A DNA stretch of 12,276 bases, from positions 1 to 12,276 of the IMG/VR virus record IMGVR_UViG_2609459774_000003; one strand, 5' to 3'. Shown one piece after another: positions 1 through 12,276 of this stretch (position 1 is its first letter; every line of letters starts with the position of its first letter). The notes beneath the pieces were generated by a model. The model was given only the letters and a program-made list of their open reading frames with translations, was not told the DNA's origin and did not search any database. A program made the position numbers and the translations under genes. The stretch is from a virus (taxonomy: Duplodnaviria; Heunggongvirae; Uroviricota; Caudoviricetes).

Positions 1-651
1 TTACCAGTCAATCCAGAGCGGACCGTGTTCAGCGTAAATATAACTGTACACATCCAGATTATATTTGTGGTCTGTTAAGAACAGGCCGCAAATACATGCC
101 GAAGCTTCCAGGGCAGCGGCTCTGTTACTGAATAACCATGTGGCAACATTCCAGCGTTTTTCTGCATCCCAGTCTTTCTCAAGGCCTGATACCATGAAGA
201 AACCGTTAGTGTTGCCATCAAATAATTCTGTTTCCAGATTTTTAAGCAATGCCTGATGGACTCTTGCCAGGTATTCCGCCGGAATTTCGCCACGAATTCT
301 GATGAGATTGTCATAAACAAACATGTTCCCCGCATATGGCGATTTTTCTTTCTTGTTTTTTAAACCAGCATCATGAGCAAACTGATCAATTTCTTCTTCC
401 GTTGGTTTCGTATTGATGTTTTGCGCTGTCGTTTCTGCAATTTTATTTGCCACACTATCTGAGTCGTGTTTATTTACAGACGCACAGAAATACAATCCGG
501 TAAACGCATCGCGCACATTACGAGCCATATTATCAGTGTCTTTTTTCGTTACCGATTCCAATGCAAGTTCGTTCAGACGATGACGAAGTGTGTGTGCTGC
601 AATCTCCTGGATTGAAGTAGGTAAATCTTTAAATTCCATCGTCAACCTCAT
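1..651 (-). CDS. Hypothetical prophage early-left operon protein (216 aa), function unknown
   Basis: Complete ORF with ATG at 651..649 and stop (TAA on minus strand) at 3..1. Its ATG overlaps the stop of the upstream small ORF (CTGATG on minus strand), suggesting translational coupling. No family recognised by eye; moderately AT-rich. Confidence 0.55.
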   Translation of the reverse strand: MRLTMEFKDLPTSIQEIAAHTLRHRLNELALESVTKKDTDNMARNVRDAFTGLYFCASVNKHDSDSVANKIAETTAQNINTKPTEEEIDQFAHDAGLKNKKEKSPYAGNMFVYDNLIRIRGEIPAEYLARVHQALLKNLETELFDGNTNGFFMVSGLEKDWDAEKRWNVATWLFSNRAAALEASACICGLFLTDHKYNLDVYSYIYAEHGPLWIDW

Positions 652-884
652 CAGTCAGAGTTTCTTGCTAACCAGCGATGCGCGCCAGCTTCGGTTTTAA
701 ACGTTTTGCTTTTGGTATACGTCATCGCGGTGAACGTGCCGTCCTGGTTGGGAAACACGCCGCACACCAGAGATTCGTTGTTGCCAAGATCGATAGTATC
801 CATGTTGACCTCATTTCCCCTTAACGCCGGGGTAGCGGAACAAAAACCTGCTGCATAGTTATTAAAGTTGAACCCTGCCGTCAT
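651..884 (-). CDS. Small prophage protein; size and position are consistent with YdaF/YdaG-like small proteins of Rac-type prophages
   Basis: ORF 884..651 on minus strand; GAGG motif 6 nt upstream of the ATG at 884. An internal ATG at 803..801 is also preceded by GAGGT with a 5-nt spacer and would give a 50-aa product, so the true start is ambiguous. Lies downstream of the leftward promoter candidate. Confidence 0.45.
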   Translation of the reverse strand: MTAGFNFNNYAAGFCSATPALRGNEVNMDTIDLGNNESLVCGVFPNQDGTFTAMTYTKSKTFKTEAGAHRWLARNSD

Positions 885-984
885 GTTCTTACGCCTCGGG
901 CTGGCTACTTAACCCCTGACCACTGCCTGGTAACTCGAGGTATTGCCCTGTATTGTGTGGGACGGGATGGGTTGGTATGGGAAA

Positions 985-1026
985 ACTATAGGAAATGCCT
1001 AATTACTTGTCAATAGGCTATGCCTA
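985..1026 (-). promoter_or_regulatory. Leftward PL-like promoter with two operator half-palindromes (OL-like)
   Basis: On the minus strand: -35 TTGACA (1013..1008), 17-bp spacer, -10 TATAGT (990..985). 13-bp dyad sites TAGGCTATGCCTA (1014..1026) and imperfect TAGGAAATGCCTA (989..1001), centres 25 bp apart. Forms a 23-bp perfect inverted repeat with the PR module. Confidence 0.45.
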
Positions 1027-1121
1027 ATAATTTGGGCGCAACCTAATAGGTGATGGTTTGTGGAAGAGGTAGTAGGAGTTAACTAACGGGAACTAGGAAT
1101 TTCCCGTCGGACCATATAAGT

Positions 1122-1598
1122 TTAAGTTCCTGTCTTGGTGATGTTCTGGCTTTTCCGTTTTGATTCTTGATTTTTCAGATAGTTAGCTACCTTCATTTCC
1201 ATTGCGGCAATGTAGGCGCGAACGTCATGATCAACCCAACTAGGCTCCGTAGCATTTCCAGATAAGATGAAAGCCACAATTGCTCTTTTTTCATCAGAGG
1301 CGGCTTGATAAAGGCTGTTTATGTCTAAAAGTTCACTTTTTGTATCTGAAGTGGATGGGGTTGGTATGGGGTATTCGTTAAGCCCCCAATGCTCTGGACC
1401 AACCACATCAGAAAAGAAACGCCATAGTTCTGGAAGTTTGTCTTTACTTATCGAACCTTTCTTAATCCAGTCATGGATTGATGGTGGTTGGACTTTGAAA
1501 TGACGTGCGATTTCCGCCTTTGATTTGACGGCTCCTGATGCAATTTTTTTGTTAATGGCCTGCTCTATCGCTCGGCCTAAGTCTTTACCACTAAGCAT
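1122..1598 (-). CDS. racR: Prophage repressor, RacR-like (158 aa)
   Basis: 158-aa ORF; sequence recalled as matching the Rac prophage repressor RacR, with an HTH-like segment near the N-terminus. AGGAGA RBS 8 nt upstream of the ATG at 1598. Divergent from the ydaS-like gene, a classic immunity-region layout. Confidence 0.8.
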   Translation of the reverse strand: MLSGKDLGRAIEQAINKKIASGAVKSKAEIARHFKVQPPSIHDWIKKGSISKDKLPELWRFFSDVVGPEHWGLNEYPIPTPSTSDTKSELLDINSLYQAASDEKRAIVAFILSGNATEPSWVDHDVRAYIAAMEMKVANYLKNQESKRKSQNITKTGT

Positions 1599-1627
1599 TG
1601 CTTAATAGTCTCCTATGCGCATCGCGT

Positions 1628-1695
1628 TAGGCAATCCCTATTCTCGATGTATTAGGCATAGCCTATTGACAATTTCATTAGGCTAAGCCTAATAT
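1628..1695 (+). promoter_or_regulatory. Rightward PR-like promoter with tripartite operator (OR-like) in the racR-ydaS intergenic region
   Basis: -35 TTGACA (1666..1671), 18-bp spacer, -10 TAATAT (1690..1695). Three 13-bp dyads TAGGC-N3-GCCTA: TAGGCAATCCCTA (1628..1640), TAGGCATAGCCTA (1653..1665), TAGGCTAAGCCTA (1679..1691), centres 25-26 bp apart. Confidence 0.5.
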
Positions 1696-1722
1696 TGTTG
1701 CGTGTTTTTTGGAGTTCATTCG

Positions 1723-2043
1723 ATGAAAAAAGATAACTATTCATTCAAACGAGCTTGTGCTGTTGTCGGTGGGCAATCAGCAATGGCTAGGCTTTTAGGT
1801 GTATCTCCTCCAAGCGTAAATCAATGGATCAAAGGTGTACGTCAGTTACCTGCTGAGAGATGTCCTGCGATTGAACGAGCAACAAAAGGTGGTGTCCTGT
1901 GTGAAGAACTTCGTCCTGATGTTGATTGGACATACTTACGACGCTCGTCATGTTATTCGCAGAATATGTCGATGAAGCAACCAAATGACGAAAACGATCA
2001 TAAAAACGCAGAAATGCATGACGTGTGGCAATCAGGCAGATGA
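1723..2043 (+). CDS. ydaS: Cro-like HTH regulator, YdaS-like
   Basis: ATG at 1723 preceded by GGAG (1711..1714); the ORF-track start at 1702 lacks an RBS. N-terminus MKKDNYSFKRACAVVGGQSAMARLLGVSPPSVNQWIKG is HTH-like and recalled as YdaS. Divergent from racR. Confidence 0.75.
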   Translation: MKKDNYSFKRACAVVGGQSAMARLLGVSPPSVNQWIKGVRQLPAERCPAIERATKGGVLCEELRPDVDWTYLRRSSCYSQNMSMKQPNDENDHKNAEMHDVWQSGR

Positions 2044-2248
2044 TCCGCATCACATCATGGGTCATGGACTGGGAGGGATGGGAACAAAGGCTGATGATTT
2101 GTTTGTTATTCCGCTGTGCCGTAAATGCCATAGCGAACTACACGCCGGGGTAAAAGATTTTGAAGAAAAACACGGCAGCCAGCTGTTGTTGCTGATTCGT
2201 TTTTTAATGCACGCGAGAAATTCGGGTGTCCTGAAGTGGAAAGCATGA
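1985..2248 (+). CDS. DUF1364/YbcO-like Cys/His-rich putative zinc-dependent nuclease
   Basis: 87-aa ORF with CxxC ... HH ... PLCRKCHSELH pattern resembling nin-region YbcO-type proteins. Its 5' end overlaps the ydaS-like ORF (start ambiguous, 1985 or 2018); its stop TGA (2246..2248) abuts the rusA ATG. Confidence 0.55.
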   Translation: MTKTIIKTQKCMTCGNQADDPHHIMGHGLGGMGTKADDLFVIPLCRKCHSELHAGVKDFEEKHGSQLLLLIRFLMHARNSGVLKWKA

Positions 2249-2614
2249 ATGACTGAACGCATAGAATTTGTTTTGCCTTACCCGCCAACGGTGAACACTT
2301 ACTGGCGACGTCGTGGCAGCACATATTTTGTATCAAAAGCCGGTGAGCGTTATCGCCGTGATGTGGCGCTTATTGTTCGCCAGCAGCGACTGAAATTAAA
2401 CCTGTCCGGACGGCTGGCGATAAAGATTATTGCAGAGCCACCGGATAAACGTCGTCGTGACCTGGACAATATCCTGAAAGCACCACTGGATGCGCTGACG
2501 CATGCCGGACTTCTCATAGACGACGAGCAGTTTGATGAAATCAATATTGTGCGCGGTCAGCTCGTTCCTGGGGGGCGGCTGGGCGTGAAGATTTACAAAA
2601 TTGAGAGTGAGTGA
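2249..2614 (+). CDS. rusA: Holliday junction resolvase RusA
   Basis: 121-aa ORF; the RRRDLDN segment and overall size match the RusA family. ATG follows immediately after the upstream stop (ATGAATG), and its stop overlaps the next start (GTGA). Confidence 0.85.
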   Translation: MTERIEFVLPYPPTVNTYWRRRGSTYFVSKAGERYRRDVALIVRQQRLKLNLSGRLAIKIIAEPPDKRRRDLDNILKAPLDALTHAGLLIDDEQFDEINIVRGQLVPGGRLGVKIYKIESE

Positions 2615-3168
2615 TCGTAAATATGATATACCCGGAAATTACAGGCAAAAGCGGCGAGCATTTACGTCTAAAAACGCTGGAAGCCGTCTGGATCCAGGGG
2701 AAATTACGGATGTGGGGGCGTTGGTCGTACATAGGTGGTGGCAAACCAGGAAATATGTTCAATCAGTTGCTGGCATCCAAAACACTTACAAAAACTGCGA
2801 TCAATGAAGCTCTGCGCAGAATAAAAAAATCAGGGATTGATAAAACTGAGCTGGAAGCGTTTTTGCGTGAGATGATCAACAGCAAGCAAAAGAGCGGGCT
2901 GGCTTATTGTACTGATGCCGAGGCGTTATGTATCGATCGGGTAATTAGTGAAGTGTTGGCAGAGCATCCGGGATTGATTTGTATCCTCCGACAAAGATAT
3001 GAAGGGCTGGGTATGAGCAAGCTGAAAATGGCAGAACAGTTAAAAAAGAATCACCCTGACTGGAGCCTGAAAACTTGTAGAAATCGCATTGATGTTTGGT
3101 TGGCGATGGCTGAAACCATGCTTTTCCTTCCAATGTGCGTGGCACTTCGGTGCTTTTCTGATAACTGA
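2611..3168 (+). CDS. Putative late-gene antiterminator Q-like protein
   Basis: 185-aa ORF in the canonical position after the nin/rusA genes. GTG start at 2611 overlaps the rusA stop; alternative ATG at 2623. Assignment is mainly positional, with weak recalled similarity to small Q-family proteins. Confidence 0.5.
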   Translation: MIVNMIYPEITGKSGEHLRLKTLEAVWIQGKLRMWGRWSYIGGGKPGNMFNQLLASKTLTKTAINEALRRIKKSGIDKTELEAFLREMINSKQKSGLAYCTDAEALCIDRVISEVLAEHPGLICILRQRYEGLGMSKLKMAEQLKKNHPDWSLKTCRNRIDVWLAMAETMLFLPMCVALRCFSDN

Positions 3169-3197
3169 TGATAGAAGTGCATCAGCTATCAATCTTG

Positions 3198-3226
3198 TTG
3201 ACGTTCATCAAGGTCTGGACAATACT
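3198..3226 (+). promoter_or_regulatory. Candidate sigma70 promoter downstream of Q (pR'-like position)
   Basis: TTGACG (3198..3203), 17-bp spacer, AATACT (3221..3226), about 30 bp upstream of the ATPase start. The -10 is weak; this is a sequence-only guess. Confidence 0.25.
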
Positions 3227-3257
3227 TACGTTAAGTTCCAACATATGGAAGATAAGA

Positions 3258-4448
3258 ATGATATTTACACGATTGAGATTTATCAATTTGTACGCTTTTG
3301 AGGATGCAGAGCTTAACCTGTCCTATCCAAGGAAACCTGTAAACATGCCTCTTGATGGGGAGTTTTTGGCTGGACGGCCTAAATTTTACTATAAAAAAGT
3401 CTGTATCATAACGGGGGGAAATGCTTCAGGTAAGACGTCACTAGGGCGAATTCTTTGTGGAATTCAGGTGTTTCTAAGAACCAAAGAGTTGCGGAGTAAT
3501 CTGCGAGTGAATAATAAAAATAATGATGCTTCGTTTGAAGTGGACTTTGCTACGGAGGATCATTTTCATCATCGTTTGTATGTACGCTTTGCTACCAGTG
3601 AAGGCGGAGCGCACATAATCAAAGAAATTAAATATGGTTTTGTTCAAATAGCATTAAATGATTCTTGCCATAAAACCACAGAAAAACTGAATCAACTCTT
3701 TTCTGGAAGGGCCCCAGAAGATACAGAATATTTTTTTCAGGAACTAGCTACTGATAGCGAACCAGTTGTATTGGAGTTTTTCAAGCAACTTAAGTTTTTT
3801 GGTGGATGGTACTATTTGTTGTCTGAAACTAAAGAGAGTACCACTGCAATTTCAGGAATGAATAAAAATATTCTTGAAAGGATAATTCGCACTTTCGATT
3901 CAAGTATTATAGGAGTTACCGAGATGCTGGAGTCTGAAAGTGACGGGGATGAAAATAAATCATCTGCGGTTTATCTGATTAAATTTAAAAACTCTGATTC
4001 TCTTGTCGTTACCAGTAAAGGTGAAATAATTAACTCAGACCGTCTTTCTCGAGGAACATACGAGGCAGTGACGGTAGCGCATTTTATAAGCGCTATTATC
4101 TCTGATTGTGAAAGACTAGGTAAGCAATCTCTAATACCATCAATGACTTATTTTCTTGACGAGAAATTGGCTTATACACATTCAGAGTTAGAGCGTATGA
4201 TTGTGGCGCTGATTATATCTAATTTGAAAGAAAATACTCAGTTTTTCTATACAACGCATAACATGGATATTTTTGAGTTGGATCTGCCTGTTCACTCGTT
4301 CATTTTTATTAAAAAAACGAAAGACTATTCGGAGTTTGTTGAAGCAAATTCAGTTGTTAAAAAAAATGACCGTAGCATGCGAAACGCTGTTGAGAGAGAT
4401 GTCTTTGGTGTCTTACCTGACACATCATTAGTATCGGAGCTACTCTGA
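3258..4448 (+). CDS. OLD/AAA_21-like ABC-type ATPase (396 aa), candidate defence-system ATPase
   Basis: N-terminus MIFTRLRFINLYAFEDAELNL typical of SMC/RecF-like ABC ATPases. Walker A ITGGNASGKTS, ABC signature-like LSRGT, Walker B YFLDE, H-loop TTHN, with about 200 aa inserted between Walker A and the signature. AT-rich relative to flanks. The ORF-track start at 3168 is an RBS-less upstream extension; ATG at 3258 chosen. Confidence 0.75.
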   Translation: MIFTRLRFINLYAFEDAELNLSYPRKPVNMPLDGEFLAGRPKFYYKKVCIITGGNASGKTSLGRILCGIQVFLRTKELRSNLRVNNKNNDASFEVDFATEDHFHHRLYVRFATSEGGAHIIKEIKYGFVQIALNDSCHKTTEKLNQLFSGRAPEDTEYFFQELATDSEPVVLEFFKQLKFFGGWYYLLSETKESTTAISGMNKNILERIIRTFDSSIIGVTEMLESESDGDENKSSAVYLIKFKNSDSLVVTSKGEIINSDRLSRGTYEAVTVAHFISAIISDCERLGKQSLIPSMTYFLDEKLAYTHSELERMIVALIISNLKENTQFFYTTHNMDIFELDLPVHSFIFIKKTKDYSEFVEANSVVKKNDRSMRNAVERDVFGVLPDTSLVSELL

Positions 4449-4981
4449 TGGCGGGGTTGTCTAAAATAAGAATAATTTTTGTCGAAGGTGAAACAGAAAA
4501 CTCTCTTTTTCTGAAGATGAAACAACAGAGAGTTATTGATGCCAAATCAATTGTAAAAAGAAACTTTTGGCAAGAGAGCATAAGAAATTATGCGATTACT
4601 ATTCCGAAGGGAAGTGATATACTAATTGTCTTTGATAGTGATGAAGTGGAGCAATCTGCAAGATTCATTGAAAATGTAAAGTTCCTTAAAAACAGAGGGC
4701 ATAAAGTTTATCTTTTGCAGCAGAAAAGAAATTTTGAGGAGGAGTTGGCCTGGTGTTGCGGAATTCCTGTAAAAAAACTAATTGCTGGGTTCTGTGCAAA
4801 AAAAACATCGGGTATAAATGATTTCAAGAGAGATTTTATTGCTTGTAACAATCAACTTTCAAAGTTACTGAAAATGGGCATGCAGGAAACTAAGTGGTTT
4901 ACAAGAGATTTACATGCTGTATTGGAGCCTGTTGCAAGTTTTAAGTCATCTTTTTCTAAACATTTCAGGTTAACAAGATGA
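4448..4981 (+). CDS. Small TOPRIM-domain protein (177 aa), putative nuclease partner of the ATPase
   Basis: N-terminal IIFVEGETE (conserved TOPRIM glutamate) and ILIVFDSDE (DxD motif). ATG overlaps the ATPase stop (TGATG), with GGAG 8 nt upstream. AT-rich like its partner. Confidence 0.7.
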   Translation: MAGLSKIRIIFVEGETENSLFLKMKQQRVIDAKSIVKRNFWQESIRNYAITIPKGSDILIVFDSDEVEQSARFIENVKFLKNRGHKVYLLQQKRNFEEELAWCCGIPVKKLIAGFCAKKTSGINDFKRDFIACNNQLSKLLKMGMQETKWFTRDLHAVLEPVASFKSSFSKHFRLTR

Positions 4982-5116
4982 TTTATTTTCTTTTTTGTTC
5001 AGCTGATTGTTTTTGTTTGTAAAATGTCTTGATTTTTTGCCAATAAACTGTTTCAATCCAGCTACGCTTCGCAAAGCTGTACCGCGAGGCGAATAGCAGA
5101 CATGGACACCTGAAAG

Positions 5117-5140
5117 AACCCGCTTTATGCGGGTTTTTTT
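5117..5140 (+). terminator. Rho-independent terminator
   Basis: Stem AACCCGC / GCGGGTT with loop TTTAT, followed by a T7 run (5134..5140). Confidence 0.7.
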
Positions 5141-5263
5141 ATGCCTGAAAAACGGCACAGAACATTAAACGCGCTGGTAGTTGTGAATACTGGTCTTTCA
5201 GCTTGCTGGCTTTTTCGACAAGAGGTATTGGTATATCACGTTAACCAGAAAAGGGAAAAAGGC

Positions 5264-5461
5264 ATGCTAAAACAGCAGGATATGACCGAAACCGCCAGAG
5301 TGGTGTTTAATGAATTAAGCGTCACCGAACCGGCGACCGTCGGGGAAATTGCGCAGAATACTTACCTTTCACGCGAACGCTGCCAGTTAATACTGACTCA
5401 GCTTGTTATGGCGGGTCTGGCAGATTATCAGTTCGGTTGTTACAGACGCCTTCCGCAGTGA
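5264..5461 (+). CDS. Small hypothetical protein (65 aa)
   Basis: ATG at 5264 preceded by a purine-rich AAGGGAAAAAGG stretch. The longer ORF-track version (5141) would begin inside the terminator T-run and is unlikely. Confidence 0.45.
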   Translation: MLKQQDMTETARVVFNELSVTEPATVGEIAQNTYLSRERCQLILTQLVMAGLADYQFGCYRRLPQ

Positions 5462-5611
5462 AGGCTTTTTAATTTGTGGTAATGGGCGGCTGGTGGGTGT
5501 TAGCGGCACCTGCCAGCCATCTGCTCATGCGTTGGGGTCACAAGCAAACCTCAGGCCCATCTGCTTTGCGCAAAAGCGGTATGAGCCTATCAGAGAAGTG
5601 CTTATTGATCT

Positions 5612-6661
5612 ATGGCCAATACTGTAAAAATATCCAGTTGTGAGTTAATCAACGCTGATTGCCTGGAATTTATCCAGACCTTACCGGAAAATTCTGTCGA
5701 TCTGATAGTCACAGACCCGCCATACTTTAAAGTGAAGCCCGAGGGCTGGGATAACCAGTGGGAGGGCGACGATGATTACCTGAAATGGCTGGACCAGTGT
5801 CTGGCGCAGTTCTGGCGGGTACTGAAGCCTGCCGGAAGTCTTTACCTGTTCTGTGGTCATCGCCTGGCATCTGACACCGAAATCATGATGCGTGAGCGCT
5901 TTAATGTGCTGAACCACATTATCTGGGCGAAGCCGTCCGGACGCTGGAACGGGTGCAATAAGGAAAGTCTGCGGGCGTATTTTCCGGCAACAGAGCGCAT
6001 TCTGTTTGCAGAACATTATCAGGGACCGTATCGCCCGAAAGATGATGGCTATGTGGAGCAGGGGCGCGAGCTAAAACAGCACGTCATGGCCCCGCTGATT
6101 TCTTACTTTCGTGATGCGCGTAAATCACTGGGAATAACGTCAAAACAGATAGCGGAAGCCACCGGAAAGAAAAACATGGCTTCGCACTGGTTTGGTACCA
6201 GTCAGTGGCAGTTACCGAACGAGGGTGATTACAACAAATTGCAGGCGTTGTTTGCGCGTGTTGCGGCAGAAAAACATCAGCGCGGGGAACTGGAAAAGCC
6301 ACACCACCAGCTGGTCAGCACATACAGTGAGCTGAACCGGCAGTATACGGAACTGCTGAGTGAATATAAAAATTTGCGGCGGTATTTCGGTGTGACGGCG
6401 CAGGTTCCGTACACCGATGTCTGGACGCATAAACCGGTGCAGTACTATCCAGGAAAACATCCGTGCGAAAAACCGGCAGAAATGCTGCAGCAGATAATCA
6501 ACGCGAGCAGTCGTCCGGGAGACCTGGTTGCAGATTTTTTTATGGGTTCAGGTTCAACGGTAAAAGCGGCGATGGCACTGGGGCGTTGTGCGATTGGTGT
6601 TGAGCTGGAGACCGGACGTTTTGAACAGACAGTCAGGGAAGTTCAGGATTTAATCGTTTGA
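5612..6661 (+). CDS. DNA N6-adenine/N4-cytosine methyltransferase, beta-class (orphan, phage-type)
   Basis: Motif IV DPPY (VTDPPYF) near the N-terminus and motif I FxGxG (DFFMGSGST) near the C-terminus, the beta-class order. No adjacent restriction endonuclease is visible. Confidence 0.85.
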   Translation: MANTVKISSCELINADCLEFIQTLPENSVDLIVTDPPYFKVKPEGWDNQWEGDDDYLKWLDQCLAQFWRVLKPAGSLYLFCGHRLASDTEIMMRERFNVLNHIIWAKPSGRWNGCNKESLRAYFPATERILFAEHYQGPYRPKDDGYVEQGRELKQHVMAPLISYFRDARKSLGITSKQIAEATGKKNMASHWFGTSQWQLPNEGDYNKLQALFARVAAEKHQRGELEKPHHQLVSTYSELNRQYTELLSEYKNLRRYFGVTAQVPYTDVWTHKPVQYYPGKHPCEKPAEMLQQIINASSRPGDLVADFFMGSGSTVKAAMALGRCAIGVELETGRFEQTVREVQDLIV

Positions 6662-6710
6662 AACGGATGAGATTGCAGAATTAATTACGCACCATTATTA
6701 TTCTGCTCCC

Positions 6711-6786
6711 GGCCCTTTAGCTCAGTGGTGAGAGCGAGCGACTCATAATCGCCAGGTCGCTGGTTCAAATCCAGCAAGGGCCACCA
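6711..6786 (+). tRNA. ileZ: tRNA-Ile2 (anticodon CAU, lysidine type; could be annotated tRNA-Met by software)
   Basis: Manually folded cloverleaf: acceptor GGCCCTT/AAGGGCC, D-stem GCTC/GAGC, anticodon loop CTCATAA, T-arm GCTGG-TTCAAAT-CCAGC, encoded CCA. Closely resembles E. coli tRNA-Ile2. Confidence 0.8.
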
Positions 6787-6793
6787 TCACATA

Positions 6794-6870
6794 CCGCCAT
6801 TAGCTCATCAGGATAGAGCGCCAGCCTTCGAAGCTGGTTGCGCGGGGTTCGAGTCCTCGATGGCGGTCCA
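6794..6870 (+). tRNA. argN: tRNA-Arg (anticodon UCG)
   Basis: Manually folded cloverleaf: acceptor CCGCCAT/ATGGCGG (unusual C1:G72), D-stem GCTC/GAGC, anticodon stem CCAGC/GCTGG, loop CTTCGAA, T-arm with one G:U pair, encoded CCA. Confidence 0.7.
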
Positions 6871-6883
6871 TTATCTGCATTAT

Positions 6884-6960
6884 GCGTTGTTAGCTCAGCC
6901 GGACAGAGCAATTGCCTTCTAAGCAATCGGTCACTGGTTCGAATCCAGTACAACGCGCCA
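6884..6960 (+). tRNA. argO: tRNA-Arg (anticodon UCU)
   Basis: Manually folded cloverleaf: acceptor GCGTTGT/ACAACGC, D-stem GCTC/GAGC, anticodon stem ATTGC/GCAAT, loop CTTCTAA, T-arm ACTGG-TTCGAAT-CCAGT, encoded CCA. Confidence 0.8.
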
Positions 6961-6974
6961 CGCTTATTTTTCCA

Positions 6975-6997
6975 GGCTCGCTTCGGCGGGCCTTTTT
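6975..6997 (+). terminator. Rho-independent terminator after the tRNA cluster
   Basis: Stem GGCTCGC / GCGGGCC (one G:U pair) with a UUCG tetraloop, followed by TTTTT (6993..6997). Confidence 0.6.
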
Positions 6998-7135
6998 CAT
7001 ATCCGCGCCACGCCCGGCGCACATCAAAAAACCACAGAGCCTTTCAGGGATGAGCTTACGGGATGGTCAGTGTGACTTTCTCTGTGGGCTGGTCACCCCC
7101 GGGCGCAGGCTCACCCACTAAAAGGAAAAGTCACG

Positions 7136-7561
7136 ATGTTTGGTATTTTCAAAAAGAAAACCCGCAAGGCCATTACCGAGGTGAAGAAGATGGAGAACCG
7201 TGACGCAGTGGAGGCGACCGTCTGGGGCGCGTACTCCATTGCATACGCTGACGGCACCTGTGACGCGAAAGAAATCGCGGTACTGGAAAAAACCATTGCA
7301 GCACTTCCTGTCTTTGCGCCGTTCTCCGGTGAGATTGCACAAATGAGTGCAAATATCCGCGCCCGTTATGAAGCGTCGCCGCGTTCTGCCAATGCCGAAG
7401 CTCTTCGTCAGCTGGCTGATGTTGCCGGTACTGATGATGCAGTTAATGTGCTGTGCCTGTGTCTGGATATCGCTGACCAGGACGGTATCGGTCAGGAAGA
7501 AGAAGCGCAACTGAAGAAAATTGCGCAGGCGCTGCAGTTGCCGCTGGAGCAGTACCTGTGA
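7136..7561 (+). CDS. TerB-like domain protein (tellurite-resistance TerB family fold), cargo gene downstream of the tRNAs
   Basis: 141-aa ORF with AAGGA RBS; acidic helical protein whose ADG/DQDG and EEEAQL features resemble TerB-like domains. Sits where stx or other cargo genes sit in related phages. Confidence 0.5.
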   Translation: MFGIFKKKTRKAITEVKKMENRDAVEATVWGAYSIAYADGTCDAKEIAVLEKTIAALPVFAPFSGEIAQMSANIRARYEASPRSANAEALRQLADVAGTDDAVNVLCLCLDIADQDGIGQEEEAQLKKIAQALQLPLEQYL

Positions 7562-8559
7562 AAAGTGCGCGCCTTGTGCTGGCTGTCATCCTGTTGTTTC
7601 TGGTACAGGCTGCAGCCGTACACACGTTGTACGGGTATATCGATTATCTTGCCAGAAATCTGTTGCCGGACATGTGTGATGAAGACTGGTTGTACCGGCA
7701 CGCCAGAATCAAACGCTGCCTGCGAAAAGATGCGGTGACAGCCCGGGGATTTGTGCGCTGGGATGGCGTAGAGGGAACACCTGTATTGCCAGCGGGAACG
7801 CAGATCCAGCGTGATGATCAGGTGACCTTCACCACGACGGCGACGGTGACCGCAGCCGATGGTCTTCTCCGGGTGCCTGTTGTGGCAGATGAACCGGGGG
7901 CGGCGGGGAATACGGATGATGGTATTGCCATGCAACTGGGAACACCCGTCAGTGGTCTGCCGTCCACAGGGTACGCGGACACCATTACAGACGGTGAAGA
8001 TATTGAAAATCTGGAAATATGGCGTGCCCGCGTTATGGAACGTTATTACTACATTCCACAGGGGGGCGCAGACCCTGATTATGTTATCTGGGCGAAAGAA
8101 GTTCAGGGTATTAACCGTGCATGGACTTTCAGACACTGGAAAGGCATTGGAACGGTTGGCGTGATGGTGGCGACAAACGATCCGGAACATCCGGCTCCGG
8201 ATGAAAGCGTCATTAATGCAGTCAGAGAACACATTCTTCCTCTGACACCGGTTGCCGGAAGTGGATTGTATGTATTCGGTGCCACAGAAAAAGTCATCCC
8301 GATGACGATTGCATTATCGAAAGACACACCGCAGATCAGGACTGCAATAAAAGCAGAGCTGAATGCACTGATGTTACGGGATGGTGTGCCAGAGGGGCGT
8401 ATGTATCTGTCCAGAATCAGTGAGGCCATCAGTTTGTCTGCTGGTGAAGTGGCTCACCGGTTAATCGTCCCTTCATCGGATATTGACCTGGGGGAGACCG
8501 AGCTTCCGGTGCTCGGCGAGATCACCTGGCAGGCTTATGACCCGGCAAGGAGTAAATAA
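7558..8559 (+). CDS. Baseplate J-like protein (Mu gp47 / P2 gpJ family), probably 5'-truncated or fused at a deletion junction
   Basis: The conserved baseplate-J core appears only about 25 aa from the start. The preceding N-terminus (GTG start overlapping the TerB-like stop) is hydrophobic and unlike the family. The rest is GC-rich and tail-like. Confidence 0.6.
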   Translation: MKSARLVLAVILLFLVQAAAVHTLYGYIDYLARNLLPDMCDEDWLYRHARIKRCLRKDAVTARGFVRWDGVEGTPVLPAGTQIQRDDQVTFTTTATVTAADGLLRVPVVADEPGAAGNTDDGIAMQLGTPVSGLPSTGYADTITDGEDIENLEIWRARVMERYYYIPQGGADPDYVIWAKEVQGINRAWTFRHWKGIGTVGVMVATNDPEHPAPDESVINAVREHILPLTPVAGSGLYVFGATEKVIPMTIALSKDTPQIRTAIKAELNALMLRDGVPEGRMYLSRISEAISLSAGEVAHRLIVPSSDIDLGETELPVLGEITWQAYDPARSK

Positions 8560-9518
8560 TGGATTCGTTACAGGATGATTATACAAAGCTGCTGTACGGA
8601 CTGATGCCGCCGGGGCCTGCATGGAGCGATACCGACGGCGTGCTTGATGGTCTGGCACCATCGCTTGTACGTGTTCATCAGCGGACTGATGAACTGATGG
8701 CTGAAATCGATCCTGGTCAGTCAACAGAGCTGATTGAACGTTATGAAGAATTGTATGGTTTACCTGACACCTGCTCTCCTGTTGGAGCCCAGACATTACG
8801 CCAGCGTCAGCAACGGCTGGAAGCAAAAGCCAATGTGGCTGGTGGCATAAATGAGCAGTTCTTCCTGGAGCAGCTTGAGGCGCTGGGATATACCGGCGTG
8901 ACGATCGAACAGTTCCAGCACCTGGATGCAAGCCCCGATCCGGAATGGGGTGATCGCTGGCGTTATTTCTGGCGTGTGACGTTGCCGGTGGATGCCGGTG
9001 CTCAGTGGCAGACATGTTCGGACACCTGTAACACACCGATCCGGACGTGGGGTGATACGGTTGCGGAGTGCGTGATTAATAAATTATGTCCGTCGCATAC
9101 TGTTGTCCTTTTTGCATATCCGGATGAGTCTGGTGAAGGGCAACAAGCCGCCCTGACTATAAACAGCCTCTCCTTTCAGGCCGGACACAAGACGACTGAG
9201 CCATTAGCGATTAATCATACAGGTGTTCATTTTGCGGTTGTTCCGGCACTGACAGGTAAGCCGCTGACAATTAACCGGATTAACTTTTATGCCGCCCGTC
9301 CGATGGCAGAACCACTGGTACTCAGCAGGGCGCAATTGCACTCAGGTCTGCCGACAACGGACCCCATGACCATGAACAGCGCACAGTTGCAGACGGGATA
9401 CAGGACCCGCTCCCCCGTACCGGTTAACAGTATGCAGTTGCAGACAGCCAGCAGAACCCGTGAACCGTTATTGATTAATCACCCGGGACTGCATTTTGCT
9501 GTGGTCACGTCCGAATGA
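8559..9518 (+). CDS. YmfQ-like (DUF2313, Mu gp48-like) baseplate protein with a ~125-aa repeat-containing C-terminal extension
   Basis: ATG overlaps the upstream stop (TAATG), with AAGGAG RBS. The N-terminal ~190 aa is recalled as YmfQ-like. The C-terminus carries degenerate repeats (EPLAINHTGVHFAVV / EPLLINHPGLHFAVV; AQLHSG / AQLQTG / MQLQTA). Confidence 0.7.
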   Translation: MDSLQDDYTKLLYGLMPPGPAWSDTDGVLDGLAPSLVRVHQRTDELMAEIDPGQSTELIERYEELYGLPDTCSPVGAQTLRQRQQRLEAKANVAGGINEQFFLEQLEALGYTGVTIEQFQHLDASPDPEWGDRWRYFWRVTLPVDAGAQWQTCSDTCNTPIRTWGDTVAECVINKLCPSHTVVLFAYPDESGEGQQAALTINSLSFQAGHKTTEPLAINHTGVHFAVVPALTGKPLTINRINFYAARPMAEPLVLSRAQLHSGLPTTDPMTMNSAQLQTGYRTRSPVPVNSMQLQTASRTREPLLINHPGLHFAVVTSE

Positions 9519-9541
9519 CATAAAATAAAAGGAGAGCCGCT

Positions 9542-10591
9542 TTGAATATTATTAAACTCGAAAGTTTTCGACAAATTCCGGCGAATGAGGGATTGTGCGA
9601 GAACTATTATTCAACAAATATTATTTCAGCACTGAACGAAAACGGTGTCACGCTTATCAATGATATGTCCGGTTCTGTAACATCCGTCTGTCGTGGCACT
9701 CAGGCCGTAAATACTGTAGAAAGAACGGGGCTGATTTTTACGACACCCTCATATGTCACACTGTACAGCACACTTCCGGACTTAAAAGCCTCAGCTGTAC
9801 AGCTGGGATTTCGTCTGACATTAAGTGCGGGAAAGAAATATTCATCTTCGCCATCCCACATCAGGATTAATGGCTATTCATTTACAACCCCGTATCCTGA
9901 TGAAGCAGCCAGTTATTACTATGAAATTTTCGCAACGCGAAACGAAAACGGCTATGTCTCAGCCAGTCTGTACTGCAACCGCTCATTAGTTGGAAATACA
10001 TCGTTTTATGTACCAGATGACCGGACTGACAAAATTCAGGTGAGTATTGGTGGTGGTAACAATATTTTTTCATCGGGTGCATCCGGCACGTTAATGCTGG
10101 GTGATATGTACTGTGGAACAGTGACATACGGTAGAAATAATAGTGCAGAACCCGCCCTGCTCGGAAGCATTGAGGTCAGATACAGCCCGGTAACGGCATT
10201 TACCGGTGGAAGCGCCAAAAACTCACTGAATAAAGATATTGTCACGGGGCTGAACACCTCTGACAGCGAGGCCGGATATCTGATGCTCTCGCCGTCCCTG
10301 AATGCAGCACAGGCCACGTTTGGTGCGGTGGATAACAGCAACAGTGATGTTGTGGCCGTTATGGCCTCGGTCACTTACCGCGGTGCTGATGCCCCCAATA
10401 ACCGCCTGGCCTGGAAAGTGAAAAATGGCAGCCATGAAGGCGCAACGATTACAGAGAATGGCGTACAAAGCGACACAAACAGCTGGACGACTGTCTCACA
10501 GAGTTTTATGACCCAACCAGGAGGGAGCACTCCCTTCGCTAAGGGTGAACTGACTTTTACAGCGGAATTGTTTAATCAGGCAAGGACATAA
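9542..10591 (+). CDS. Hypothetical tail-associated protein (349 aa), S/T/N/G-rich, possible receptor-binding or cargo protein
   Basis: TTG start with a strong AAGGAG RBS 7 nt upstream. Lower GC than the neighbouring baseplate genes. No recognisable catalytic motifs; composition is typical of beta-rich fibre or lectin-like domains. Confidence 0.55.
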   Translation: MNIIKLESFRQIPANEGLCENYYSTNIISALNENGVTLINDMSGSVTSVCRGTQAVNTVERTGLIFTTPSYVTLYSTLPDLKASAVQLGFRLTLSAGKKYSSSPSHIRINGYSFTTPYPDEAASYYYEIFATRNENGYVSASLYCNRSLVGNTSFYVPDDRTDKIQVSIGGGNNIFSSGASGTLMLGDMYCGTVTYGRNNSAEPALLGSIEVRYSPVTAFTGGSAKNSLNKDIVTGLNTSDSEAGYLMLSPSLNAAQATFGAVDNSNSDVVAVMASVTYRGADAPNNRLAWKVKNGSHEGATITENGVQSDTNSWTTVSQSFMTQPGGSTPFAKGELTFTAELFNQART

Positions 10592-10621
10592 TTCTGATAT
10601 TTCATTCACGGGAGGTTTAAT

Positions 10622-11731
10622 ATGCACAGAATTGACACTCCGACAGCAGTTAAAGATAAATTTGGCCCGGGCAAGAACGGATTTACTGACGGGAATATTC
10701 GTACAGGGCGTCATGCCACCTGGCTGAACAGTGCCATGTGGGATGCCCTTCAGGAGGAAATCTGTGGTGTCATTGAGAAGGCCGGGATAGAACTGAATAA
10801 AGAGGAACACGACCAGTTATATAAAGCCATATTATTACTGGTTGGCGGTGCGATTAACGAAGAGGCATTGCTGATAAAAAATAATCTTTCGGATGTCGAA
10901 GACAGTGATGAGGCTGTTGAAAACCTCGGATTAAAACCCACGGTGGATAAGGCAAAAAATGCCGTTCAGCGTGATGGAGACACCATGACCGGGGAGCTGA
11001 AAATCCGTGGCGTTAATGCACTGAGGATTTTCAACGAAGCCTTTGGTCTGATTTTTCGTCGTTCGGAAGAGTGTCTGCACCTCATTCCTACCCGGGAAAA
11101 TCAGGGCGAGAGTGGTGATATTGGGCCGCTACGCCCCTTTACGCTTAATCTCAGGACCGGTCGCATAACTATGGGACATGGTCTGGATGTTACAGAAGAT
11201 GTATTTGCAGGCCGTTTTGCGATTAACAGCAGTAACGGAACGTGGATTCAGATGCGTGACAACAACGTTATTTTCGGGAAAAACAGGATAAATACTGATG
11301 CTGCTCAGGCGCTTCTGCGTCAGGATCATGCAGACAGAAAGTATTTCCTGGCTGGTCTTGGGAATAAGCAGTTTGGCATTTACATGATAAATAATAGCCG
11401 TACGGATAATGGTACGGACGGTCAGGCGTATATGGATGATGCGGGAAACTGGCGATGCGGGCGTCAGGTTATACCGTCAGACTACGGAAACTTCGATGCC
11501 CGCTACCAGACCAAAACAGGTGGCGTACAGAATTTTCAGTATACCAGTGAGGTGTTTTACAACCCGGGCGGGAATGAGCACAGCTGGACGTTTCGAGCAC
11601 CTTCTGGTTGTGTTTTGTCAGGCATTAATGTTCAGGATACTGGCCGTAACTCTGCAGACAATATCGGTGGCGTGTATTACAAACAGGCTCAGATTTATAT
11701 TAATGGTGCATGGCGATCTGTATCAGGTTAA
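10622..11731 (+). CDS. Side tail fibre protein (Stf-like)
   Basis: N-terminus MHRIDTPTAVKDKFGPGKNGFTDGN matches the conserved N-terminus of enterobacterial prophage side tail fibres. DGDTMTGEL motif present. GGGAGG RBS. Confidence 0.8.
   Translation: MHRIDTPTAVKDKFGPGKNGFTDGNIRTGRHATWLNSAMWDALQEEICGVIEKAGIELNKEEHDQLYKAILLLVGGAINEEALLIKNNLSDVEDSDEAVENLGLKPTVDKAKNAVQRDGDTMTGELKIRGVNALRIFNEAFGLIFRRSEECLHLIPTRENQGESGDIGPLRPFTLNLRTGRITMGHGLDVTEDVFAGRFAINSSNGTWIQMRDNNVIFGKNRINTDAAQALLRQDHADRKYFLAGLGNKQFGIYMINNSRTDNGTDGQAYMDDAGNWRCGRQVIPSDYGNFDARYQTKTGGVQNFQYTSEVFYNPGGNEHSWTFRAPSGCVLSGINVQDTGRNSADNIGGVYYKQAQIYINGAWRSVSG
10913..10938. other. Candidate Hin/Gin/Pin-family invertase crossover site inside stf
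   Basis: GCTGTTGAAAACCTCGGATTAAAACC: the left half TTGAAAACC and core match the hix/gix consensus as recalled. It falls at the ENLGL-encoding constant/variable junction of the fibre gene, as in Mu G and e14 P segments. Confidence 0.4.
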
Positions 11732-11745
11732 TTAAGGAGAAAATA

Positions 11746-12276
11746 ATGGAACTCTCAAACATTACGCGTTACTACCCTGAAGACATGCCTTATGGTGACG
11801 GCATTCAGTATTTCCGTAGTGAAGACGGGCAGGATTTTTATGAATCACTGGATAAATTCACGAAGAAATACAAGCTGTGCACGCATCCTGAAACCGGCGT
11901 TATTTATTCCGTGGCGGAAGATGTATCCCGTCTTTATCCCGTTGGTTTTACCATTGTGGAAGTGGATGAACTACCGGATGGCTTTTGTATAGAGGCGCGC
12001 TGGTATTATAAAGACGGTGAAGTACTACCGGTCCCTGTTGACTACAGGCAGCAGGCAGAGTCGGAGCGTGCACGTCTTACTGCGATTGCCGAACGGGAAA
12101 TATCCGATAAGAAGACGGATTTACTTTTGGGAATCATCGGTGATGAAGAAAAAGAAAAGCTGACAGTCTGGCGCATTTACGCGAAATTGCTGCAGGCGAT
12201 GGATTTCAGCACCATCACTGATAAAACCTCATATAACGCCATTGAATGGCCCGTCTCTCCGGAAGCCTCTTCCTGA
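11746..12276 (+). CDS. Tail fibre assembly protein (Tfa-like, 176 aa)
   Basis: ATG at 11746 with AAGGAGA RBS 5 nt upstream. N-terminus MELSNITRYYPED is typical of Tfa/U-family chaperones. Stop is at the window end (12274..12276). The ORF-track start at 11710 overlaps stf and lacks an RBS. Confidence 0.8.
   Translation: MELSNITRYYPEDMPYGDGIQYFRSEDGQDFYESLDKFTKKYKLCTHPETGVIYSVAEDVSRLYPVGFTIVEVDELPDGFCIEARWYYKDGEVLPVPVDYRQQAESERARLTAIAEREISDKKTDLLLGIIGDEEKEKLTVWRIYAKLLQAMDFSTITDKTSYNAIEWPVSPEASS

Follow-up and report, generated by a model that had tools for sequence, protein, structure and literature searches.

Why does a prophage region that carries a late antiterminator, a DNA methylase and tRNA genes run directly into a baseplate gene? 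The locus lies in a 12,276-nt stretch of DNA from a Caudoviricetes record, analysed here in full (the window), for which a reading made from the sequence alone had proposed a deletion or recombination junction between positions 7000 and 7640. The gene content described in that reading was confirmed. On the plus strand the window encodes a Q-like late antiterminator (DUF1133/Phage_antitermQ; 2611–3168), a low-GC cargo pair consisting of an AbiLi-like ATPase (3168–4448) and an AbiLii-like protein (4448–4981), an N6/N4 DNA methyltransferase (5612–6661), and three tRNA genes (CAT, TCG, TCT; 6711–6960) that form an ileZ-argN-argO type cluster of Stx/phiP27 phages and were the only Rfam matches. A TerB-family moron gene (7136–7561) follows, in the slot of stx2e in phiP27; its function is putative, as the Pfam TerB match (PF05099, 32.4 bits against a cut-off of 24.4) covers only profile positions 60–106 of 118. 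Next comes the baseplate J-like gene, and no lysis, terminase, head, sheath, tube, tape-measure or hub gene was found between it and the tRNAs, as had been claimed. Downstream lie a Mu gp48/YmfQ-like wedge protein with a 125-aa C-terminal extension (8559–9518), a 349-aa protein of unknown family together with a 369-aa tail fibre homologous to phiP27 L54 (9542–11731), and a tail-fibre assembly protein (Caudo_TAP; 11746–12276), at whose stop codon the window ends.

The chimeric baseplate J reading frame

The J-like ORF (7558–8559, plus strand) encodes 333 residues, in which residues 1–16 of a DUF3927 protein are fused in frame to residues 44–360 of a baseplate J homologue. Its J portion, from codon 43 to the stop (7603–8559), is 100% identical to WP_000785585.1-type genes. 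The Pfam Baseplate_J domain (PF04865) was detected at 180.3 bits (cut-off 21.1, E 5.6e-53), with ORF residues 42–290 matching profile positions 2–255 of 255. The overlap of the GTG start with the TerB stop, reported earlier, is present as GTGA. The J core had been placed about 25 residues from this start; homology to J in fact begins at residue 16/17, and the Pfam domain at residue 42.

Alignment to homologues bore out the proposed truncation. J proteins of this family are 352–364 aa long and match the whole ORF except its first ~16–20 residues; their residues 1–42, conserved across genera, are missing here. The loss amounts to 42–43 of 360 residues, replaced by 15–16 residues of DUF3927, so that the full-length architecture of about 352–364 aa with a conserved N-terminal helical segment is absent. 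The lost segment is predicted to be helical, an AlphaFold model of full-length J placing helices at residues 11–28, 30–33 and 37–62. The N-terminal regions of Mu gp47 and gp48 build the three-helix bundle of the wedge core (PMC11915804), and the chimera lacks the helices that J-type wedge proteins use for that bundle. The gene neighbourhood is also only half preserved: gp48 is present downstream, while hub, gpV and gp46 are missing upstream and TerB stands directly upstream instead.

The N-terminus had been described as hydrophobic and foreign to the family. It is indeed foreign to J, and its hydrophobic core reaches a mean Kyte-Doolittle value of 3.7, but it belongs to a known gene, DUF3927, which normally stands after TerB and of which codons 1–16 are present here (7558–7605; GTG start, GGAG Shine-Dalgarno sequence at 7546–7549). 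DUF3927 (PF13064) is a small membrane protein of ~50 aa. An intact 50-aa homologue scores 53.9 bits, and with codons 1–16 alone left, Pfam reports no DUF3927 domain in the chimera.

The junctions and their intact parents

Base-level three-way alignment placed the junction at 7603–7605, within the interval originally proposed. Homology on the left (the Q/methylase/tRNA/TerB/DUF3927 block) stops at 7605, and homology on the right begins at 7603, which is codon 43 of 360 in J. The trinucleotide GTA is the sole sequence common to both parents, and no bases were inserted. In E. coli ATCC 43886, one intact prophage carries both flanks on the same strand, each with 99.3% identity to the window; 17,794 bp separate them, and both ORFs are in phase across the gap. 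A flank spacing of ~17.8 kb was also seen in at least 10 further complete genomes (11 including ATCC 43886). This arrangement shows an internal deletion, one of the two origins previously suggested, and not a join of two prophage types, the other.

Between the two breakpoint sites, the ATCC 43886 prophage contains every expected late gene. According to its gene table, the deleted block begins with the rest of DUF3927, the first gene past TerB at the start of the late operon, and continues with two holins, an M15 endolysin and two small ORFs. The packaging and head genes follow: HNH endonuclease, small and large terminase subunits, a small frameshifted ORF, portal, protease, major capsid protein, connector and closure proteins, and tail terminator. 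Then come sheath, tube, chaperone, tape measure, DNA-circularisation protein, hub protein, gpV, gp46 and the first 126 nt of J. The window thus matches phiP27-like prophages on both sides of the gap (99.3% to ATCC 43886, ~91–92% to phiP27), whereas all of its lysis, packaging and head genes and most of its tail genes have gone with the 17,794 bp.

The claim that a lambdoid early region had been joined to Mu/e14-like baseplate genes is not supported. Phages of the phiP27/SfV/SfI type natively have both lambdoid control genes and a Mu-like tail (PMC3636060); a phiP27-like phage unites lambdoid regulation with an HK97-type head and a Mu-type contractile tail. A more specific version of the proposal takes the left flank from another lambdoid type, for example a RacR lambda-like siphovirus prophage, and the baseplate region from a separate phiP27/e14-like prophage or infecting phage. 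Lambdoid prophages are strongly mosaic, and window positions 1–2002 (the RacR-type immunity region) share 99.9% identity with differently tailed, lambda-like prophages in E300010 and E200086, which also carry TerB-DUF3927. Yet the 2.6 kb at 5028–7605, which holds the TrmB-like gene, methylase, three tRNAs, TerB and DUF3927, is 99.3% identical to the phiP27-type prophage of ATCC 43886 and unlike the E300010 type, which has a different Q, two tRNAs and no methylase. In ATCC 43886, AST205, Z0117EC0133, FDAARGOS_1077 and at least 10 others, late genes of the phiP27 type are linked to this left module. The mosaic transition to the RacR region is found 5.6 kb farther upstream, at a separate junction. 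An inter-element origin of the 7603–7605 junction is consequently very unlikely. The window is instead, with high confidence, part of a defective phiP27-like E. coli prophage that underwent one illegitimate, microhomology-mediated deletion of 17,794 bp, from DUF3927 codon 16 to J codon 43.

The separate junction, at 2001–2002, is a second deletion, with the microhomology TA. It joins the 3' end of a ydaS/cro-like gene to codon ~271 of a 352-aa DUF968 gene, and ydaT, the replisome organiser, the loader and other genes (about 6–7 kb) are missing there. Because the left end is shared with lambda-like, different-tailed prophages, the element is mosaic, and for part of it a two-element history is formally conceivable. 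The AbiL-like pair is a further difference from the ATCC 43886 relative, which lacks it (insert at 3114–5027).

Functions essential for lytic growth were thus lost twice, late genes at 7603–7605 and replication genes with most of DUF968 at 2001–2002. The element is a defective remnant that retains the repressor, Q, the AbiL-like pair, the methylase, three tRNAs, TerB and the fibre genes, and it is probably non-inducible. Any integrase and att sites lie beyond the 12.3-kb window, and no longer contig containing the junction was found. The earlier suggestion of a cryptic remnant with retained cargo is strengthened by the loss of the replication genes.

Inheritance of the chimera and origin of the breakpoints

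No place in 5,426 complete E. coli genomes matched at least 80% of a 2.1-kb junction-spanning query, and an exact search for the 46-nt junction among GTDB representatives returned no match. Such absence would be expected of an assembly artefact or chimeric contig, an explanation to which we nevertheless assign almost no probability. The identical 333-aa product is present in NCBI nr as the RefSeq non-redundant protein WP_050489353.1, and the same chimera is encoded in an independent Logan (SRA) assembly, which differs by 50 SNPs over 5.6 kb and has another module upstream; the two SNPs inside the chimera gene are synonymous. In addition, a derived form of this junction is present on contig L014, whose flanks have SNPs in common with the lineage of the independent assembly. 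Occurrence in RefSeq and in an independent SRA assembly establishes that the chimera is heritable and not an artefact. L014 was also considered as a third independent use of J codon 43; this was rejected, since it shares flank SNPs with L005 and most plausibly reflects a secondary deletion of 174 bp between GGTAC repeats.

An inherited in-frame fusion might have been domesticated. The DUF3927 leader (MKSARLVLAVILLFLV-QAAAV), which resembles a signal peptide or anchor, could send a J-gp48-fibre complex to the envelope under Q control, a proposal in keeping with the retention of the native Shine-Dalgarno sequence and start codon, the hydrophobicity of the leader core and the synonymous nature of both intragenic SNPs. 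However, an in-frame join arises by chance one time in three, two synonymous SNPs carry no statistical weight, the helices of the wedge core bundle are gone, the partner genes gp43–46 are absent, and the L014 derivative has already destroyed the fusion. We therefore regard domestication as highly improbable. The in-frame join is fortuitous; from DUF3927 the chimera retains the Shine-Dalgarno sequence, the GTG start and the TerB coupling, and it gains a hydrophobic leader. Most likely it is a non-functional relic, as the hub, gpV, gp46, tube and sheath genes are absent from the window.

The deletion probably arose through a replication template switch or double-strand-break end joining. No recombinase gene was found in the window, and the breakpoints share only 3 nt. 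Site-specific recombination was rejected, as the phiP27 att core (CACGCAGTTAA) and cos site (CCGCCCGCCC) are unlike the junctions; resemblances to invertase, dif, IS1-end and Chi-like sequences were weak and post hoc and were dropped. A hairpin or palindrome as the cause was likewise discarded, because the 100 nt around each parental site fold no better than shuffled sequences (z −0.3 and +0.1). A small quasi-palindrome (TGTACA / GGCTGCAGCC) adjoins the J site and is not significant. A promoter scan near the junction found a terminator-like hairpin at 6974–6993 and no sigma-70-like site. Neither breakpoint is a general hot spot: the sequence across J codon 43 is intact in 51 of 52 records and that across DUF3927 codon 16 in 156 of 174, where no partial match ends at the latter codon in the 60 records sampled. 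The same region has been deleted independently in the relatives AST205, Z0117EC0133, FDAARGOS_1077 and K-12 e14.

Large deletions in the phiP27-type prophage family recurrently join at GGTA/NNTA. This raises the possibility that the deletion is real but that the breaks were directed to 5'-GGTA-3'/NNTA sequences rather than joined at random microhomology, DUF3927 codon 16 (CTGGTA) and J codon 43 (GTGTA) being two such sites. An unidentified nuclease, an aberrant transposase or IEE-type insertion-deletion-excision pathway, or a topoisomerase-like staggered cut could be responsible. GGTA/TACC lies within the microhomology ±3 nt in 9 of the 14 junctions for which both parents were identified, against a null rate of ~0.06 (P ~1.5e-8, or ~1.7e-6 without site-sharing junctions). 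All eight deletions larger than 6 kb (known or inferred size) are of this type, and the motif is in register in both parents at four junctions (K-12 e14, FDAARGOS_1077, AST205 and L014). The microhomology of FDAARGOS_1077, which was examined after the hypothesis had been stated, is exactly GGTA. Both breakpoints of the window recur, joined to other partners, in Z0117EC0133, and IEE-dependent IS excision leaves IS-free microhomology deletions of up to >40 kb, with IEE reported in >30% of E. coli assemblies (PMC9943667).

Against this stands the post hoc discovery of the motif in a small sample whose members are partly non-independent; of the six junctions examined once the hypothesis had been framed, only two fit (P ~0.046). 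No IS-bearing intermediate was found at either site among the 5,426 genomes, and DNA folding around the sites shows nothing unusual. GGTA is not accounted for by the cos and att cores of phiP27, nor by the enzymes considered: gyrase Topo-seq describes quinolone-stabilised scission before G, which leaves the bias unexplained (PMC6379681), Rpn nucleases have no sequence specificity (PMC5350276), and IEE is described as acting by MMEJ with no motif given (PMC9943667). The window's two breakpoints are re-used in genome L001 and family junctions are biased to GGTA/NNTA, neither of which is predicted by a plain model of random microhomology. For the window deletion itself, directed breakage is a possible but rather doubtful cause. 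The broader proposal, that large inactivating deletions in E. coli phiP27/SfV/lambdoid prophages such as e14 and the window element are non-random and sequence-directed at preferred GGTA/NNTA sites, is similarly tentative. It would imply that prophage decay is shaped by a nuclease, transposase or topoisomerase activity not yet recognised. If the bias and breakpoint re-use hold, they would identify a specific mechanism behind prophage domestication.

Significance and comparison with known systems

The kind of event described here is already known as ordinary, textbook prophage decay, and its main value is for annotation. The entry WP_050489353.1 bears the label 'baseplate J/gp47 family protein' although it is a DUF3927::J fusion from a dead prophage. 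The element, with its AbiL-like defence pair, methylase, tRNAs and TerB, should be classed as defective cargo and not as an inducible phage. Its exact breakpoints and parental arrangement also make it a clean marker by which lineages of ETEC-like E. coli can be traced.

Some deletions in EHEC/ETEC prophages, both IEE/IS-associated and 'simple' microhomology events, are likewise seamless and IS-free, span tens of kb and have 2–5 nt of microhomology (PMC9943667). In contrast to the IEE/IS type, neither an IS nor an IEE gene is visible in the window, and the search for IS-bearing intermediates was negative, so a role for IEE/IS here is speculative.

At the protein level, Mu gp47 (baseplate wedge protein 2, PDB 9ki1) is a homologue with the same length of 360 aa as the parental J (E 2.2e-37 over residues 37–351), and in the window, too, a gp48 homologue lies downstream. 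The window protein differs in having a foreign hydrophobic leader in place of the N-terminal helical wedge-core region.

The gene order of the window type is that of phiP27 (NC_003356), an Stx2e phage, and of the ATCC 43886 prophage at yecE: Q, a small TrmB-like gene, methylase, tRNAs, moron, holins, endolysin, HNH and P27-type terminase, followed by an HK97 head, a Mu-like tail, J, gp48 and fibres. The ~91–92% identity of phiP27 to the window extends over the methylase-tRNA and J-fibre blocks, and its 360-aa J has an identical N-terminus; the gp48-like protein of the window is identical in the intact relative. Both the ATCC 43886 prophage and phiP27, an isolated phage, are complete, unlike the window element. 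phiP27 further differs in carrying stx2e in place of TerB-DUF3927, a GIY-YIG gene in place of the AbiL-like pair, and another immunity region.

The closest analogue of the event itself is the beeE'::'jayE fusion of K-12 e14. Like the window element, e14 is of SfV/SfI/phiP27 type, has kept its repressor region, cargo and distal baseplate and fibre genes (jayE, ymfQ, stfP and tfaP), and has lost head and tail genes by an internal deletion that truncates the N-terminus of the J homologue. In e14 as well, a second junction, the ymfN chimera, destroys replication and terminase genes. The details differ: e14 joins portal codon ~94 to codon 91 of a 352-codon J, with 12,692 bp gone relative to SfI and a microhomology of GGTA, and the two J regions are only ~72% identical at the DNA level. 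Whereas jayE is an out-of-frame pseudogene, the join in the window is in frame and costs J only 42 residues.

Mapping of the 17.8-kb deletion

In a megablast search of the junction region against 5,426 complete E. coli genomes, the window up to position 7605 matched a tRNA-TerB-DUF3927 block, and from 7603 on it matched 'baseplate J/gp47 - YmfQ' with identity of up to 100%. A single intact prophage of E. coli ATCC 43886, integrated at yecE/DUF72, holds both blocks. The two fetched ATCC 43886 loci were joined and aligned to the window: window 5028-7605 corresponds to reference 23298-25875 (99.3%), and window 7603-12276 to reference 43667-48340 (99.25%). A base-level three-way alignment placed the crossover at GTA, which alone is common to both parents, with zero inserted bases and 17,794 bp absent relative to ATCC 43886. 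This comparison supports the internal deletion that the sequence-only reading had offered as one of two origins.

The RefSeq annotation of the intact ATCC 43886 relative gives the content of the missing block. It runs from the remainder of the DUF3927 gene through two holins, the M15 endolysin, and a pair of small ORFs to an HNH endonuclease, terminase subunits of the P27 family (small and large), a small frameshifted ORF, and the portal. Next come the protease and capsid protein of HK97 type, connector proteins, and the tail terminator, then sheath, tube, chaperone, tape measure, and the DNA-circularisation protein. The baseplate hub protein, gpV, gp46, and nucleotides 1–126 of J close the block.

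The other proposed origin, a junction made from two separate prophage types, is very improbable. The isolated Stx2e phage phiP27 shows, as one phage, the same order of Q, methylase, tRNAs, moron (stx2e, at the position held by TerB-DUF3927 in the window), holins, endolysin, HNH, terminase, HK97 head, Mu-like tail, J, gp48, and fibres, and the flanks lie 17.75–18.09 kb apart on one strand in eleven complete genomes including ATCC 43886. Within lambdoid genomes, SfI, SfV, phi-P27, ST64B, and e14 likewise have homologous packaging and morphogenesis genes in a similar organisation (PMC3636060). The lambda-like prophage of E. coli E300010 has in common with the window just the RacR region and TerB-DUF3927. 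Since the 2.6 kb adjoining the junction on its left are of the ATCC 43886 type and not of the E300010 type, internal deletion within one prophage is the parsimonious history.

The junction at 7603-7605 is genuine and heritable. RefSeq WP_050489353.1, 'baseplate J/gp47 family protein [Escherichia coli]', is exactly the 333-aa sequence that it encodes, and the same chimera is encoded by an independent SRA-derived contig (L005) that is 99.1% identical to the window over everything from the first tRNA on and carries an unlike antiterminator module upstream of the tRNAs. The start of the first tRNA is the exact mosaic boundary; L005 1-2872 (versus window 1-6710) has a PF03589-type antiterminator and tRNA-Gly, and the methylase is absent. 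In a third contig (L014), which shares flank SNPs with L005, TerB is joined to the same J position. On these alignments, the L014 join is best explained by a secondary deletion of 174 bp between GGTAC repeats, one of them a product of the first deletion.

The chimeric 333-aa reading frame

The ORF uses the native DUF3927 start, a GTG at 7558 that overlaps the stop codon of TerB as GTGA and is preceded by GGAG 8 nt upstream; the intact DUF3927 gene encodes 50 aa. Because both sides of the join are in phase in the three-way alignment, the product consists of DUF3927 residues 1–16 followed by J residues 44–360, the shared GTA encoding V16/V43. The hydrophobic N-terminus, previously described as non-family, is indeed foreign to J and is recognisable as a DUF3927 fragment; the intact DUF3927 homologue matches PF13064.

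A search among 5.8 billion proteins bore out the proposed truncation of J. Homologues are almost all 352–364 aa long (360 aa in phiP27, with an identical N-terminus) and align to the whole ORF except its first ~16–20 residues. Residues 1–42 of full-length J, missing from the window ORF, are highly conserved across 15 aligned sequences from several enterobacterial genera, and helices at 11–28, 30–33, and 37–62 are predicted in a model of full-length J (mean pLDDT 81.5). J matches the solved Mu gp47 (9ki1, E 2e-37). The wedge core of the Mu baseplate has a three-helix bundle, built from the N-terminal regions of two gp47 copies and one gp48, that docks between gp43 subunits (PMC11915804). A part of J critical for assembly is therefore missing from the chimera. 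Given that its partner genes are also absent, we infer that it is a relic.

Gene content and a second deletion

The gene content previously read at 7000-7640 was correct, as judged from the gene list and an Rfam scan of the window, which found nothing besides the tRNAs. A RacR-type repressor (1122-1598, minus strand) and a YdaS/Cro-like gene (1723-2043) are followed by a C-terminal DUF968 fragment (1985-2248), RusA (2249-2614), and a Q-like antiterminator (2611-3168). Homology to RacR-type prophages ends at 2002, and DUF968-RusA-Q homology begins at 2001, at about codon 271 of the 352-aa DUF968 gene, with TA common to both. This second junction, at 2001-2002, joins the YdaS/Cro-like gene to the DUF968 gene; between its two sides, relatives carry YdaT, a replisome organiser, a loader, and several others (about 6–7 kb). 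The two deletions thus leave the element without replication genes and without late genes, which supports its earlier description as a cryptic remnant that retains cargo. We infer that it is non-inducible.

The low-GC AbiLi/AbiLii-like pair (3168-4981) lies in a two-gene cassette (3114-5027, about 35% GC) between Q and a small TrmB-like ORF, and resembles an AbiL abortive-infection pair (PADLOC AbiLi 7.6e-26, AbiLii 1.5e-3). The same slot holds a GIY-YIG gene in phiP27 and no gene in ATCC 43886. The TrmB-like ORF is followed by a DNA methyltransferase (5612-6661) and three tRNAs (6711-6960) matching the ileZ-argN-argO cluster of Stx phages. ARAGORN calls the first (6711-6786) Met (CAT); in relatives, RefSeq gives tRNA-Ile of the ileZ type, presumably lysidine-modified. 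A GC-rich terminator-like hairpin with a T run (6974-6993) separates the last tRNA from the TerB-family gene (7136-7561), for which no sigma-70-like promoter was found.

Downstream of the Baseplate_J ORF (7558-8559), the gp48/YmfQ-like ORF (8559-9518) encodes 319 aa versus 196 aa in phiP27; its C-terminal extension of 125 aa has repeated 'PL.IN'-like motifs. The intact ATCC 43886 prophage carries an identical, open ORF, which PGAP flags there as a partial pseudogene. Next come a protein of 349 aa with no family match, a tail fibre of 369 aa, and a fibre-assembly gene whose end is the last base of the window.

Breakpoint sequences and related deletions

Both window breakpoints are re-used with other partners in E. 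coli Z0117EC0133 (L001, about 7161 and about 14116): DUF3927 codon 16 meets a fragment of an O-like gene, and J codon 43 meets J codon 204. Neither codon is a general hot spot. The same locus carries the DUF968-to-TerB block in two diverged tandem copies.

Among 14 junctions with both parents known, TA lies within the microhomology in eight (null rate 0.03–0.10). In this small sample, and post hoc, GGTA or its complement TACC occurs in the microhomology ±3 nt at 9/14 (null rate about 0.06; P about 1.5e-8, or about 1.7e-6 without site-sharing junctions). The junctions behind this bias include 7603-7605, 2001-2002, and those of L001, L004, L006, L009, L014, and L017. The window junction parents read CTGGTA (left) and GTGTA (right), and the K-12 e14 and FDAARGOS_1077 junctions have exactly GGTA in both parents, the latter having been looked at after the GGTA hypothesis was stated. 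The pattern holds for all large deletions (>6 kb where the size is known); the five junctions outside it are all <1.6 kb. No match was found to phiP27 cos and att sites, gyrase, Rpn nucleases, or the IEE literature. We regard the GGTA/TA bias in deletion junctions of this prophage family as a lead, not a result; a possible sequence-directed deletion process is the sole element that could raise the interest of the deletion.

Independent deletions affect the same general region in AST205 (terS'::'gp46) and Z0117EC0133 (three junctions). In FDAARGOS_1077 a 6,061-bp deletion connects the capsid gene with the DNA-circularisation gene, and in E300010 a lambda-type tube gene is joined to the fibre region (L009, about 20853, inside the 349-aa gene of the phiP27-type fibre region). 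The E300010 prophage, lambda-type with a RacR immunity region as in the window and ending in the same fibre and assembly genes, is another hybrid remnant. The closest described analogue is e14 of K-12, in which alignment to phage SfI shows 12,692 bp absent, from the portal gene (beeE fragment) to codon 91 of the J homologue, the jayE pseudogene, and which has a second junction in ymfN. Given these independent deletions in e14 and relatives, the window deletion adds a new allele to a well-known class of events, ordinary prophage decay.
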